In this document: positions 4,101 through 8,341 of the stretch, piece by piece
How the letters are laid out: every line of letters starts with the position of its first letter
Position numbering within the stretch: the stretch's first letter is position 1
From: a virus
DNA length: 15,661 bases
UHGV virus genome: UHGV-0232198
Strand: one strand, 5' to 3'
Program-made: the position numbers and the translations under genes
The notes under the pieces: generated by a model
Told to the model about the DNA's origin: nothing
Database searches by the model: none
The model's input: the letters and a program-made list of their open reading frames with translations, nothing else

Positions 4101-4285
4101 ACGCCACAATTCAAACGATACCAGAGCTTCTTATCCAGACACGAGGCAATCAGACCGAAGTGGCGAGGATGCTTTCCTGCGCAAGAGGAACAGTGCTCAA
4201 GTACAACCGAGACAGCAAAGGCGAACGTCACGTAATAGTTAACGGCGTCCTGATGGTCAAACAGGGCAAGAGAGGAAGACGATGA
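4097..4285 (+). CDS. ninH: NinH-like small DNA-binding protein
   Basis: 62 aa; core GNQTEVARMLSCARGTVLKY matches the lambda NinH core (GNQTEVARRLKCSRGTVRKY) as I recall it; ATGA overlaps on both sides. Confidence 0.8.
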   Translation: MNATIQTIPELLIQTRGNQTEVARMLSCARGTVLKYNRDSKGERHVIVNGVLMVKQGKRGRR

Positions 4286-4905
4286 GACTCGAAAGCGTAG
4301 CTAAATTTCATTCGCCAAAAAGCCCGATGATGAGCGACTCACCACGGGCTACGGCTTCTGACTCTCTTTCCGGTACTGATGTGATGGCTGCTATGGGGAT
4401 GGCGCAATCACAAGCCGGATTCGGAATGGCTGCATTCTGCGGTAAGCATGAACTCAGCCAGAACGACAAACAAAAGGCTATCAACTATCTGATGCAATAT
4501 GCACACAAGGTATCGGGGAAATACCGTGGTGTGGCAAAGCTTGAAGGAAATACTAAGGCAAAGGTACTGCAAGTGCTCGCAACATTCGCTTATGCGGATT
4601 ATTGCCGTAGTGCCGCGACGCCGGGGGCAAGATGCAGAGATTGCCACGGTACAGGTCGTGCGGTTGATATAGCCAAAACAGAGCAGTGGGGGAGAGTTGT
4701 CGAGAAAGAATGCGGAAGATGCAAAGGTGTCGGCTATTCAAGAATGCCAGCAAGCGCCGCATATCGCGCTGTGACGATGCTAATCCCAAACCTTACTCAA
4801 CCAACCTGGTCACGCACTGTTAAGCCCCTGTATGACGCTCTGGTGGTGCAATGCCACAAAGAAGAGTCAATCGCAGACAACATTTTGAATGCGGTCACAC
4901 GTTAG
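4282..4905 (+). CDS. Q: Late-gene antiterminator Q (lambda type)
   Basis: 207 aa; near-identical to my recollection of lambda Q, including the Cys4 zinc motif CRDCHGTGRAV...CGRCKGVGYS; followed by a PR'-like promoter. Confidence 0.9.
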   Translation: MRLESVAKFHSPKSPMMSDSPRATASDSLSGTDVMAAMGMAQSQAGFGMAAFCGKHELSQNDKQKAINYLMQYAHKVSGKYRGVAKLEGNTKAKVLQVLATFAYADYCRSAATPGARCRDCHGTGRAVDIAKTEQWGRVVEKECGRCKGVGYSRMPASAAYRAVTMLIPNLTQPTWSRTVKPLYDALVVQCHKEESIADNILNAVTR

Positions 4906-4947
4906 CGGCATGATTGCCACGGATGGCAACATCTTTACGGCATAATA

Positions 4948-4985
4948 TTGACTTATTGAATAAAATTGGGTAAATTTGACTCAAC
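4948..4985 (+). promoter_or_regulatory. PR' late promoter with overlapping qut (Q-utilisation) region
   Basis: TTGACT (4948-4953), 17-bp spacer, TAAATT (4971-4976); the string TTGACTTATTGAATAAAATTGGGTAAATTTGACTCAACGATGG matches lambda PR'/qut as I recall it. Confidence 0.65.
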
Positions 4986-5010
4986 GATGGATAAATGCAC
5001 TCGTTAAATA

Positions 5011-5047
5011 AAGCCCTGAGTTAATAGCTCGGGGCTTTTTGCGTTTT
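5011..5047 (+). terminator. Rho-independent terminator downstream of PR' (tR'-like)
   Basis: AAGCCCTGAG (5011-5020), loop TTAATAG, CTCGGGGCTT (5028-5037) with one G-U wobble, followed by TTTTTGCGTTTT. Confidence 0.6.
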
Positions 5048-5228
5048 AAGCACGACCTTTCTGAAAGCACATCAAACCAAATACCAGACAGACAAAAATA
5101 ATCACCTTATCCGCTGTGGCTACGGTGCGGTGTGCTTTGCATAAAAGAAAACCAGCGCAATGGCTGGCTTCGTGAAAGCGGGTGGCAAGAGGTTGTTGTC
5201 GATTAAAAATAAATACAAGGAGTAGCTT

Positions 5229-5750
5229 ATGCTAAGCGAAACAGCGAAAGATATCGCAGGATATGAAGGTAAATACTCCGTAACTACTGATGGCCGCGTT
5301 TATTCTCATTCGAGAGTTGATTCTCGTGGAAGGTTACAGAAGGGCAGATGGCTTAAGCCTGTTAATCATAGTGATGGTTACTTGTATGTAAATCTCCGCG
5401 ACAAAGGAGCACTTAAAAAACATTACATTCACAGGTTAGTGGCGGCTGCATTCATTGATAATCCAAACTCGCTTCCGCAGGTAAACCACATAAATGGAAT
5501 CAAGTCTGACAACAGAGTAGATAATCTTGAGTGGGTTACTGGCTGCCAGAATATGGTCCATGCAAGCAAGTCAGGATTGCTAAACCCAATCAGTGGTGAG
5601 CGCCACTATTGTGCAAAACTCACTACTGAGCAAGTGAAAGAAATACGTGCGTGCAAATCAATGTCGCAGCGTGAAATGGCGAGAATGTACGGCGTATCAA
5701 AAGCAACAATTGCAGGAATTCTTAACTATAAGACATGGGTTATTTATTAA
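5229..5750 (+). CDS. HNH homing endonuclease (NUMOD4-like N-terminus, HNH core, C-terminal helix-turn-helix)
   Basis: 173 aa; GYEGKYSVTTDGRVYS (NUMOD4-like), HINGIKSDNRVDNLEWVT (HNH H-N-G...N...N-L core), C-terminal TTEQVKEIRACKSMSQREMARMYGVSKATIAGILNYKTW (HTH-like); strong RBS AAGGAG at 5217-5222; AT-rich relative to neighbours. Confidence 0.85.
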   Translation: MLSETAKDIAGYEGKYSVTTDGRVYSHSRVDSRGRLQKGRWLKPVNHSDGYLYVNLRDKGALKKHYIHRLVAAAFIDNPNSLPQVNHINGIKSDNRVDNLEWVTGCQNMVHASKSGLLNPISGERHYCAKLTTEQVKEIRACKSMSQREMARMYGVSKATIAGILNYKTWVIY

Positions 5751-5977
5751 CTAATTAATTAAGAGCTCCCATTACAGGATGCATTTATGAGTGCATCCAT
5801 TAATGGTCGTTAAATGCGATTGATATGGATACTGCGCAAACAGTATCCCTAATGGTCTCCTCGCGACAACTGTGACGAGCAAACAGCGTTACCGCAAAAT
5901 GTAGCCTGGATTTGTTCTATCAGTAATCGACCTTATTCCTAATTAAATAGAGCAAATCCCCTTATTGGGGGTAAGAC

Positions 5978-6301
5978 ATGAAGATGCCAGAAAAACATGA
6001 CCTGTTAGCCGCCATTCTCGCGGCAAAGGAACAAGGCATCGGGGCAATCCTTGCGTTTGCAATGGCGTACCTTCGCGGCAGATATAATGGCGGTGCGTTT
6101 ACAAAAACAGTAATCGACGCAACGATGTGCGCCATTATCGCCTGGTTCATTCGTGACCTTCTCGACTTCGCAGGGCTAAGTAGCAATCTCGCTTATATAA
6201 CGAGCGTGTTCATCGGCTACATCGGTACTGACTCGATTGGTTCGCTTATCAAACGCTTCGCTGCTAAAAAAGCCGGAGTAGAAGATGGTGGAAATCAATA
6301 A
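5978..6301 (+). CDS. S: Class I holin S (lambda type; dual-start S107/S105)
   Basis: 107 aa; [45 protein letters not shown]... is essentially lambda S; three hydrophobic segments; Met1-Lys2-Met3 dual start. Confidence 0.95.
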
Positions 6302-6761
6302 TCAACGTAAGGCGTTCCTCGATATGCTGGCGTGGTCAGAGGGAACTGATAATGGACGTCAGAAAACCAGAAATCATGGTTATGACGTCATTGTTGGCGG
6401 AGAGCTATTCACTGATTACTCCGATCACCCTCGCAAACTTGTCACGCTAAACCCAAAGCTCAAATCAACAGCCGCCGGACGTTACCAGCTTCTTTCACGT
6501 TGGTGGGATGCCTACCGCAAGCAACTTGGCCTGAAAGACTTCTCTCCCAAAAGCCAGGACGCAGTGGCATTGCAGCAGATTAAAGAGCGTGGCGCTTTAC
6601 CGATGATTGATCGCGGTGATATTCGTCAGGCTATCGACCGTTGCAGCAATATCTGGGCTTCACTTCCGGGCGCTGGTTATGGTCAGTTCGAGCATAAGGC
6701 TGACAGCCTGATTGCAAAATTCAAAGAAGCAGGCGGAACGGTCAGAGAGATTGAGGTATGA
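6285..6761 (+). CDS. R: Endolysin R (lambda-type lytic transglycosylase)
   Basis: 158 aa; [39 protein letters not shown]... matches lambda R; start overlaps the end of S. Confidence 0.95.
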
Positions 6762-7225: not shown

Positions 7226-7398
7226 TAGCGATAATTTTACTCATCATCCTTCACATCTGGCTCTGTAGACAGGGTGATGATCACTTCTGGAGTGAATCCA
7301 GATTAAACATCTCATTGCTGATGCTTGATATTGAGCATCTGGCGCGCGGTAAGGGGCTGCGTTGAGATAAGAGCCAGTCATTACAAATACCAGGATTT

Positions 7399-7423
7399 AG
7401 CCTCGCATTTGCGGGGCTTTTTT
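7399..7423 (+). terminator. Putative rho-independent terminator downstream of Rz
   Basis: 8-bp stem GCCTCGC.../...GCGGGGCT with one G-U wobble, 4-nt loop, followed by a T run (7418-7423). Confidence 0.45.
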
Positions 7424-7571
7424 ACATCTGCAGTAAACCGCGCATCGCAGCGCGTAACAATCCCGAGTCTTTCAGAAAGCTGAGCCTGAGAATTGCCGTA
7501 TATGGTGGCGACCATCTCGGGGACGGCTTTTCTGTGCGAACAGGCTCATCTTTCTAAAAGGTAAAGACGCA

Positions 7572-8114
7572 ATGAACTACCCAACCGTTGTTAACGATAT
7601 AGATTTCAGAGACCTAATTTTTGTAGCAAACAACGATCCGGTTACAGATTCTTTTATGGTGGCAAAAGCATTTGGAAAGCTGCCGAAGAACGTGGTTCGT
7701 GACATTGAACGAACCATAGAAGCTTGCCCTCCTGAGTTTGATACAAAGCTCAACTTTGAGCTTTGCTATAAAAACAATGAGTTACAGAATGGTAAGCCGC
7801 AAAAATTCTACCGTCTCCGCAAGGATGGGTTGATGCTTTTGGTTATGTCCTACACCAAAAAAGAAGCAATGCGTATCAAAATTGCTTACATCAACGCATT
7901 CAACTGGATGTACGCCATGCTTCAGGTTGGTCATCGTCAATTTGAAGAAGAGAGAAATGCCGTAATGCTGGAGTACATGAAAGAGAAGGATGTTGCCAGC
8001 ATGTCAGGCCGCCTGCTTAATCGCTGGGGAAAAATTAAGAAGCCTCAGCTACTGGCGAGAATTGAACGCCTTGAACAGCACGGGCAAACCGTAATCCCCG
8101 GACTCACCAATTAA
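7572..8114 (+). CDS. rha: Rha-family phage regulatory protein
   Basis: 180 aa; N-terminal region DLIFVANNDPVTDSFMVAKAFGKLPKNVVRDIERTIE...FYRLRKDGLMLLVMSYTKKEAMRIKIAYINAF resembles the Rha domain from memory; its position between lysis and packaging genes matches P22-like phages. Confidence 0.75.
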   Translation: MNYPTVVNDIDFRDLIFVANNDPVTDSFMVAKAFGKLPKNVVRDIERTIEACPPEFDTKLNFELCYKNNELQNGKPQKFYRLRKDGLMLLVMSYTKKEAMRIKIAYINAFNWMYAMLQVGHRQFEEERNAVMLEYMKEKDVASMSGRLLNRWGKIKKPQLLARIERLEQHGQTVIPGLTN

Positions 8115-8341
8115 CGGCAGTACAGCGAAACAACCCAAGCCAGAAAGTGGGGAAATAACACTGGCAGCCACTGAAAGATGAACCTCCTGCCTTATGGCAA
8201 AAAAGATTCTTTGTGGTGGCGGACTGATGGAAAGACATCGGTTATTGCAGAGGCCATTCAATGAGTGGTCTCGACAATGGCTTATACCCTACACGGGATA
8301 TATTAACTGATATCCCTTTTAACGGATAAACGGAGCCAACA

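Follow-up and report, generated by a model that had tools for sequence, protein, structure and literature searches.

Two different hairpins beside an I-HmuI-like HNH gene in the late leader of a lambdoid phage

Introduction

The virus genome UHGV-0232198, analysed here as one stretch of 15,661 nucleotides that we call the window, is that of a P22-like/lambda-like phage with Escherichia phage N7 as its nearest record (98.7 % identity across 4900–6300). In its late region, between the Q gene and the holin gene S, it carries an endonuclease gene of the HNH type, and just downstream of this gene lie two palindromes that an earlier note on the same DNA had described as related hairpin modules. Our analysis points to two different conserved RNA hairpins of the late transcript, both brought in with the mobile, I-HmuI-like HNH gene, and taken as a whole we hold this explanation to be likely and well short of certain. 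The first hairpin (HP1) is assigned to a family of compact intercistronic hairpins, the second (HP2) to the apex of a long late-leader hairpin (LLH), of which the window holds a divergent allele linked to the HNH gene (LLH′).

Results and Discussion

Both palindromes were read directly from the letters where the earlier note had located them. In HP1, GGATGCA (5777–5783) is answered by TGCATCC (5792–5798) and followed by aTTAATGGTC, and in HP2 a core of 8 bp, GGATACTG (5827–5834) with CAGTATCC (5841–5848), encloses the loop CGCAAA and is followed by cTAATGGTC; in relatives this stem reaches 11 pairs. The observation that neither has a T-tract also stands, with UCGUUAAAUG following HP1 and CUAAUGGUCUCC following HP2, and the terminator scan calls nothing at either place. 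An intrinsic terminator was therefore rejected for want of a U-tract after either hairpin. HP1 is larger than the palindrome by which it had been described. Its inner stem comprises 9 bp (5777–5785/5790–5798, GGAUGCAUU/AGUGCAUCC) closed by the 4-nt loop UAUG, and beyond a 2×2 internal loop (CA/AU) an outer stem is formed by CCAUUA (5769–5774) and UAAUGG (5801–5806). The TAATGG that follows the palindrome is the 3′ arm of this outer stem, because CCATTA at 5769–5774 pairs with it. RNA folding gave −18.9 kcal/mol (z = −5.7) for HP1 alone, −11.0 kcal/mol (z = −4.9) for the HP2 core and z = −4.2 for the region 5751–5870, and in all three cases no shuffled sequence folded as well.

For a comparison among relatives, 150 bases from 5746 were aligned across 13 distinct variants that carry the HNH gene. 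Here 97 % of cells pair and the loops vary freely. Compensatory double changes were found at six pairs, three of them in HP2 and three in HP1, including one in the HP1 outer stem, where a C-G pair has become A-U in the variant L159. When the pairing partners were slid by 1–3 columns as a control, pairing dropped to 29–48 % with 0–1 double changes. With folding that beats the shuffles and compensatory changes among the 13 variants, the suggestion that these are structured elements rather than chance palindromes is borne out.

The two hairpins are not versions of one module, as had been supposed. A covariance model of HP1 misses HP2 and a model of the leader hairpin misses HP1, which puts them in different families; a tandem duplication of one module was rejected since neither model matches the other hairpin. 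The feature that had made them look alike is TAATGGTC, which occurs three times in the window versus 0.33 times expected. After HP2, it is present in some lineages only, and other relatives carry CAGTGATT, CGATGATT, TAATGATT or TAATGGTT instead, hence the 3′ flank does not hold as a common feature. Judged from the alignment, the recurrence of TAATGGTC in two different structural contexts is a coincidence confined to certain lineages.

The HP1 model, built from 12 of the variants with the HNH gene, also matches phages that lack this gene. There it finds a hairpin after the lysis genes, CATTACA-AAGCCTATC-TACG-GGTGGGCTT-GA-TAATG, with 25.9 bits and E ~0.003, at a site 1.4–2.3 kb downstream of the leader hairpin. 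A search of IMG/VR with the pattern CATTACA-N9-TAYG-N11-TAATG, which fixes only the clamp and the loop, yielded at least 36 distinct sequences. Among the matches listed (36), 22 form 7–9 of the 9 possible inner pairs and the other 14 form 1–6, the chance of at least 7 being 0.017. The 22 well-paired matches listed comprise at least eight unrelated inner-stem sequences, and among the matches listed each of the nine stem positions is filled by at least three Watson-Crick pair types. Common to the family are a conserved CAUUA/UAAUG clamp, the 2×2 internal loop, a free 9-bp inner stem and a UACG or UAUG tetraloop. On the plus strand, the inner stems of the matches listed contain 184 Watson-Crick, 35 G·U and 3 A·C pairs. 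This wobble bias indicates that HP1 and its family work as RNA of late-transcript sense, and of the roles that the earlier note had considered, these G·U pairs favour that of an RNA element in the late transcript.

The placement of the family is equally regular. Its members lie on the sense strand of the late operon and start about 0–20 nt from the upstream stop codon (0–7 nt in most contexts), either in the gap between lysis genes and terminase or in that between the major tail gene and a chaperone gene, and the gene on their 5′ side encodes a spanin, a Rha-type protein, a KilA-N-like protein or the major tail protein. In the window, the HNH stop codon occupies 5748–5750 and HP1 begins at 5769. 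Family hairpins sit at the right-hand edge of slots holding exchangeable accessory genes. A query around the post-lysis member matches about 170 phage records, mostly with no annotated feature under the match, and in many of them the hairpin's 5′ foot is exactly where homology sets in. Family hairpins occur in these records and in many IMG/VR contigs, most of which lack this HNH gene. Among the matches listed, there are one or two members per contig, and in the 15.6-kb window the HP1 model with filters off finds a single copy, unlike what is expected of REP- or MITE-like dispersed repeats.

Compared with HP1, the post-lysis hairpin of P22-like and HK97-like phages (CATTACA-AAGCCYATC-TACG-GGTGGGCTT-GA-TAATG) has the same clamp, internal-loop position, stem length, tetraloop type, sense strand and site 3′ of an accessory gene, whereas it differs in the inner stem, in the 3′ side of the internal loop (GA instead of AU) and in lying between lysis genes and terminase instead of between Q and S. 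It is without annotation in most GenBank records listed. Of the post-lysis member only the 5′ foot TCATTACAAA survives in the window: a cassette with a Rha-like gene (7572–8114) has replaced the rest of the hairpin, and the left junction falls inside the hairpin foot. We also observed a terminator-like hairpin near 7401–7425 that precedes the Rha-like gene in this cassette (7340–8130), and BLAST suggests that the hairpin next to rha is missing in P22 as well. Rfam 15 gave no meaningful match at E ≤10 for 4800–6400 and none at E ≤1 in the lambda, HK140 and L170 loci that hold LLH and the post-lysis hairpin. In the literature we found no description of HP1-type hairpins or of the leader hairpin, and the papers on the Pas small RNAs (sRNAs) and on phage L do not cover them. 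By these comparisons, HP1 is shown to belong to a family of compact intercistronic hairpins of enterobacterial lambdoid late operons, and the case for regarding the HP1-type hairpin as a candidate new, apparently undescribed cis-acting RNA family is well supported.

HP2 has a different background. In leaders without the HNH gene, namely those of lambda, HK140, epsilon34, P22, HK620 and MG40 and 85 distinct IMG/VR variants, the corresponding place is taken by a hairpin of like layout. Between tR′ and S, lambda, HK97-like, P22-like and HK620-like leaders contain LLH, a hairpin of about 72 nt with three helices that lies about 100–170 nt upstream of S in lambda. Its basal helix is UUCGUGA/UCACGAA, its middle helix covaries and its apical stem has 12 bp; there are 6 + 12 stacked pairs and a 3′ bulge of 6 nt, and ACGARCAAAC and then the GGATTTGTTC hairpin follow on its 3′ side. 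In a set of 24 representatives, the proportion of paired cells is 94 %, and both the middle and the apical helix show double changes. In lambda (about 45016–45087) the long fold is the optimum at −35 kcal/mol (z = −4.2). The covariance model R1, trained on HNH-less leaders only, found its best match in the whole window, both strands included, at 5806–5879, over its full length and with 18.5 bits (E ~0.004). In all 11 relatives searched, the top match is at the same place (16–30 bits, E 5e-6 to 0.04).

The RNAalifold consensus of 5806–5880 gives the same three-helix arrangement, with a basal helix CGUUA/UGACG, a middle helix UGCGA/UCGCG and HP2 as the apex, and ATGGTC (5852–5857) becomes the 3′ bulge of LLH′. 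The flanks of HP2 are invariant because they pair as the basal and middle helices of this long hairpin. The basal sequence UUCGUGA/UCACGAA of LLH does not occur in the window, where pairing is kept through changes on both sides, and single-sequence folding prefers the long hairpin in 10 of the 13 variants with the HNH gene. LLH′ shares with the lambda hairpin its position relative to tR′, the flanking leader and S, lying between tR′ and the holin gene with ACGAGCAAAC and then GGATTTGTTC (at 5908) behind it, as well as the three helices and the 3′ bulge between the middle and the apical one; it differs in being strongly diverged, with the apex GGAUACUG/CAGUAUCC, in having no U-run and in occurring only with the HNH gene. 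GUUUUG comes directly after the lambda-type apex, which in the MG40 record bears the annotation of a predicted terminator; the P22 type and LLH′ have no U-run. On the plus strand, the only wobble in the basal and middle helices, as in HP1, is G·U. HP2 is shown by this homology to be the apical stem of a three-helix hairpin of LLH type, that is, an ordinary late-leader element in variant form.

Both hairpins are strictly tied to the HNH gene in their exact sequences. The 160 bases around them were found in 3 of 50,697 phage records and 6 of 5,426 complete E. coli genomes, each time beside an HNH homologue. In IMG/VR, two independent patterns, one for the HP1/HP2 junction and one for the sequence after HP2, returned the same 28 contigs, and all 28 contigs with HP1 and LLH′ also encode the HNH protein. 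Further variants come from Salmonella, Citrobacter and Lelliottia prophages with HNH proteins down to 62 % identity. A scan of metagenomes for the HP1/LLH′ junction gave two unrelated chance matches only, and an HNH protein alignment scan of the genome collection gave only relatives of <50 % identity in unrelated bacteria, none of them with HP1. The leaders of HK97-like phages, HK022, HK140 and epsilon34 have neither the HNH gene nor, at the level of exact alleles, the two hairpins. The earlier note had reasoned that the same sequences in lambda-like phages without the HNH gene would mark them as ordinary leader sequence; such elements do exist as homologous structures, and in their exact sequence they are found only beside the HNH gene. 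HP1 arrived with the HNH gene, because HNH-less Q–S leaders contain no HP1-type hairpin in a search with the HP1 model.

The HNH protein has I-HmuI of Bacillus phage SPO1 (PDB 1U3E) as its closest solved structure (E = 7e-11). The two are of similar length (173 aa here, 174 aa in I-HmuI) and align over the N-terminal and HNH parts. I-HmuI resides within a group I intron, whereas the window gene is free-standing in a non-coding leader; I-HmuI is a relative of the gene and not of the hairpins. The unit that travels together comprises the 5′ untranslated region (UTR) of the cassette, the HNH gene, HP1 and the complete diverged leader hairpin LLH′. The 5′ UTR, which begins with ATTAAAAAT and runs to GGAGTAGCTnATG (ATTAAAAAT...AAGGAGTAGCTTATG), is kept before HNH homologues, including 56 %-identity ones elsewhere. 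On the left of the cassette the window retains a remnant of the resident LLH, made up of the 5′ arms of its basal (TTCGTGA), middle (GCGGGT) and apical (GGCAAGAGGTTG) helices and the loop TTGTCG. The remnant matches leaders of the HK140/L170 type exactly as far as 5195, i.e. through GGCAAGAGGTTG, and its loop resembles those of HK620 (TTGGCG) and of L225 (TTGACG). In four variants UUCGUGAAAA alone is left on this side. On the right, the sequence is common to all variants through ACGAGCAAAC, beyond which the backbones differ. Relative to HK140, 66 bp are replaced by 5196–5900 of the window. Read from these breakpoints, the alignments show that the cassette has entered a resident LLH at its apical loop or within its 5′ half and replaced the remainder, and a complete, strongly diverged LLH′ of its own always comes behind it. 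The site of the cassette is always the Q–holin interval, across three Pfam families of Q and several holin families.

Several further observations concern HNH genes. Some prophages with the HNH gene have another, unrelated HNH_3 gene next to Q: that of L152 is an HNH_3/AP2 gene (441–932) between Q and the leader, and that of L154 (1–734) apparently forms a fusion of an HNH_3 domain with the Q reading frame. HNH homologues of 56 % identity in L036 (1501–2130) and L162 (1201–1725) lie outside the Q–holin slot and have the cassette 5′ UTR (GGAGTAGCTnATG) without the hairpins; the one in L162 comes after the lysis genes, and the one in L036 has a CATTACA remnant on its 3′ side, which hints at movement of the HNH family between hairpin-bounded slots. 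Within the HNH gene of the window there is a promoter-like site in antisense orientation (TTTACA-16-TATGAT, 5365–5392, minus strand) with 10 of 12 consensus positions.

The coordinates of all features are collected in Table 1. The terminator-like hairpin on the minus strand adjoins the leader hairpin remnant; it is kept in HK97-like and P22-like leaders and absent from lambda. Directly 5′ of the S dual-start stem-loop lies the hairpin GGATTTGTTCTAT/ATAGAGCAAATCC, both arms of which are kept in all leaders examined, HNH-less ones included. A part in S translation control, which the earlier note had also proposed, is not supported, as the palindromic hairpins end at 5851 and the dual-start stem-loop (5958–5971) follows about 100 nt downstream. 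A minus-strand frame of 36 codons (5772–5882), open in 13 of 13 variants, is probably not a gene: its start codon is TTG, no Shine-Dalgarno sequence can be seen before it, and its product changes radically where the loops are encoded. We regard it as a by-product of the palindromes.

Table 1. Features of the late region in the window.
Feature	Position	Strand	Basis
Q gene	4282–4905		
Late promoter pR′ with qut region	4948–4976	+	Promoter scan; homologous site annotated PR′/qut in HK140, epsilon34 and P22
tR′ intrinsic terminator, end of 6S-type RNA	5010–5047	+	Terminator scan (13-bp stem and T-run); P22 annotates the equivalent
Terminator-like hairpin CCAGC..GCTGG, then TTTTCTTTT	5148–5171	−	Terminator scan
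Remnant of the resident LLH, 3′ half missing	5169–5201	+	
5′ UTR of the HNH cassette, Shine-Dalgarno AAGGAG at 5217–5222	5202–5228	+	
Endonuclease gene (NUMOD4 + HNH_3 + helix-turn-helix (HTH)), 173 aa, I-HmuI-like	5229–5750	+	Pfam; PHROGs phrog_59; structure 1U3E
HP1, member of the CAUUACA...UAYG...UAAUG family	5769–5806	+	Folding, inverted repeat, variant alignment, family model
LLH′, divergent HNH-linked allele of LLH	5807–5880	+	RNAalifold consensus; covariance model
HP2, apical stem-loop of LLH′	5824–5851	+	
Further leader hairpin GGATTTGTTCTAT/ATAGAGCAAATCC (5908–5920/5947–5959)	5908–5959	+	Inverted repeat I6, 92 % complementary
S dual-start region, stem-loop CCCC-UUAUU-GGGG (5958–5971), starts at 5978 and 5984	5958–5986	+	Read directly; dual-start holin/antiholin annotated in lambda imm21 and HK140
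Lambda-type holin S, then R	from 5978		
TCATTACAAA, surviving 5′ foot of the post-lysis family member	7376–7385	+	Window 7340–7390 and 8100–8130 compared with L170, which has the intact hairpin

Several points weigh against the explanation by two conserved RNA hairpins carried along with the HNH gene. In the window and in phage N7, G-to-T changes at 5821 and 5826 break two pairs of LLH′, and the long fold of the window reaches −12.6 kcal/mol compared with −20.8 kcal/mol for the optimum of three local hairpins, a difference of about 8; in the window only the HP2 core may form, and the two changes may represent decay of the long hairpin in the window/N7 lineage. The HNH-less leaders were gathered with a pattern containing TCACGRACAAA, which makes the invariance of the basal 3′ arm partly a matter of construction, and E-values of purpose-built models are rough. 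In the apical stem, the non-Watson-Crick cells are all A·C on the plus strand, 35 in number (6 with and 29 without the HNH gene), with zero G·U. This bias is not what a plus-strand RNA helix predicts and suggests that the apex is under a different constraint or has a role on the minus strand. No empty site with the LLH′ allele was found, and because of this the order of events is a reconstruction. Finally, a stabilising or processing role of HP1 is one that we infer from position and strand bias only.

Among the alternatives, the palindromes could be DNA sites that the neighbouring endonuclease binds or cuts via its C-terminal HTH, for autoregulation or mobility. A binding or cleavage site specific to the HNH protein had already been suggested in the earlier note, and it agrees with the strict tie of the exact sequences to the HNH gene, with the 56 %-identity relatives whose different slot is bounded by the hairpin family and has a CATTACA remnant downstream, and with the recurrence of the 5′ foot CATTACA as a recombination junction. 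Nevertheless, HP1-family hairpins are common in phages that lack this gene, HP2 is homologous to the hairpin of HNH-less leaders including that of lambda, and a homing enzyme should cleave the allele without its gene and spare its own. Inner stems that vary freely yet stay paired, with G·U wobbles on one strand, moreover fit an RNA and not a duplex protein site, and we consider this alternative decidedly unlikely. The hairpins might also matter only as DNA, as conserved linkers at module boundaries that promote the shuffling of accessory genes in the manner of the promoter-stem-loop cassettes (PeSLs) of T4-type phages (PMC2839356). Backbone homology does begin exactly at the hairpin foot in many phages, the same hairpin is preceded by differing genes (Rha variants, KilA-N-like, HNH, or nothing), and the junction in the window lies inside the foot at 7376–7385. 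A linker function of this kind accounts neither for nine inner pairs that survive complete sequence turnover nor for the one-strand G·U bias, and it can coexist with an RNA role instead of replacing it; as the sole explanation it appears unlikely to us.

Very unlikely is a function as transcription terminators or attenuators that silence the lysis genes in the prophage and are read through by Q-modified polymerase. The terminator annotated in MG40 at the lambda-type LLH apex with its GTTTTG, a BLAST match in phage Emek that overlies a terminator feature, and intra-operon terminators of unknown role noted in P22-like phages (PMC8022706) can be cited in its support, but HP1, HP2 and the P22-type LLH have no U-tract, the scan calls none of them, and the basal and middle helices of LLH, which a simple terminator would not need, covary too. 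An action of the apical stem, meaning HP2 and its homologues, on the minus strand, be it in a leftward transcript or in single-stranded DNA, is suggested by the A·C cells, all 35 of which, spread over about 10 pair positions, would be G·U on the minus strand, and the canonical minus-strand terminator at 5148–5171 lies just beyond LLH. These counts are inflated by related sequences, however, the basal and middle helices are biased the opposite way, and the HNH insertion has put 640 bp between LLH′ and that terminator with no apparent harm. A scan of 5850–6100 on the minus strand found no leftward promoter-like site either, on which ground an antisense sRNA was rejected as well, and we regard a minus-strand action of the apex as highly improbable. 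Binding by the HNH protein, termination and S translation control by the hairpins are thus not supported, and two different RNA hairpins of the late transcript remain our preferred explanation.

Known intercistronic hairpins offer some guidance on what these two might do. REP elements, the RNase III sites of T7 and lambda sib are intercistronic hairpins that stabilise mRNA or serve as RNase III sites. HP1 resembles them as a stable hairpin right after a cistron in a polycistronic transcript, and LLH as a long imperfect helix with an asymmetric bulge; unlike REP, HP1 is single-copy in the window, and the sequence-conserved clamp of its family sets it apart from known RNase III substrates. RNase III sites in the lambda late leader were reportedly described by Daniels et al. 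in 1988. The PeSLs are likewise short conserved intergenic stem-loops that border insertions, deletions and replacements of non-essential genes (PMC2839356). In PeSLs a strong early promoter is combined with a terminator that functions (Arbiol et al. 2010, PMC2839356), while HP1-family hairpins have no promoter-like site and no U-tract.

On this background, HP1 in the mRNA would protect or process the 3′ end of the cistron before it, here the HNH mRNA, and at the DNA level it would be a conserved block where cassettes are exchanged. LLH may be an element through which the late leader is processed or attenuated, and the cassette would keep it in diverged form. The endonuclease would target HNH-less leaders in or near LLH, and the linked LLH′ would preserve the leader structure while escaping cleavage. 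A bolder proposal, to which we attach little probability, is that the hairpin family both marks cassettes and helps to move them. The clamp CATTACA...TAATG would then be an element for specific recognition or breakage, at which I-HmuI-like HNH enzymes such as the present one might nick; accessory genes would move from one hairpin-bounded slot to another and take the hairpin along, and the HNH cassette would home into LLH and bring a structure-preserving, cleavage-immune allele.

Conclusion

What appeared as one motif is resolved here into what are probably two conserved RNA structures, in a lambdoid late region that has been heavily studied and whose non-coding parts are largely unannotated. 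The HP1-type hairpin, located at sites where accessory genes are swapped, gives a definite starting point for asking how these genes are exchanged and kept insulated. An HNH cassette that splits LLH and yet carries a diverged copy of it illustrates how a homing endonuclease with a free-standing gene could enter a non-coding target that is structured and leave the function of this target intact.

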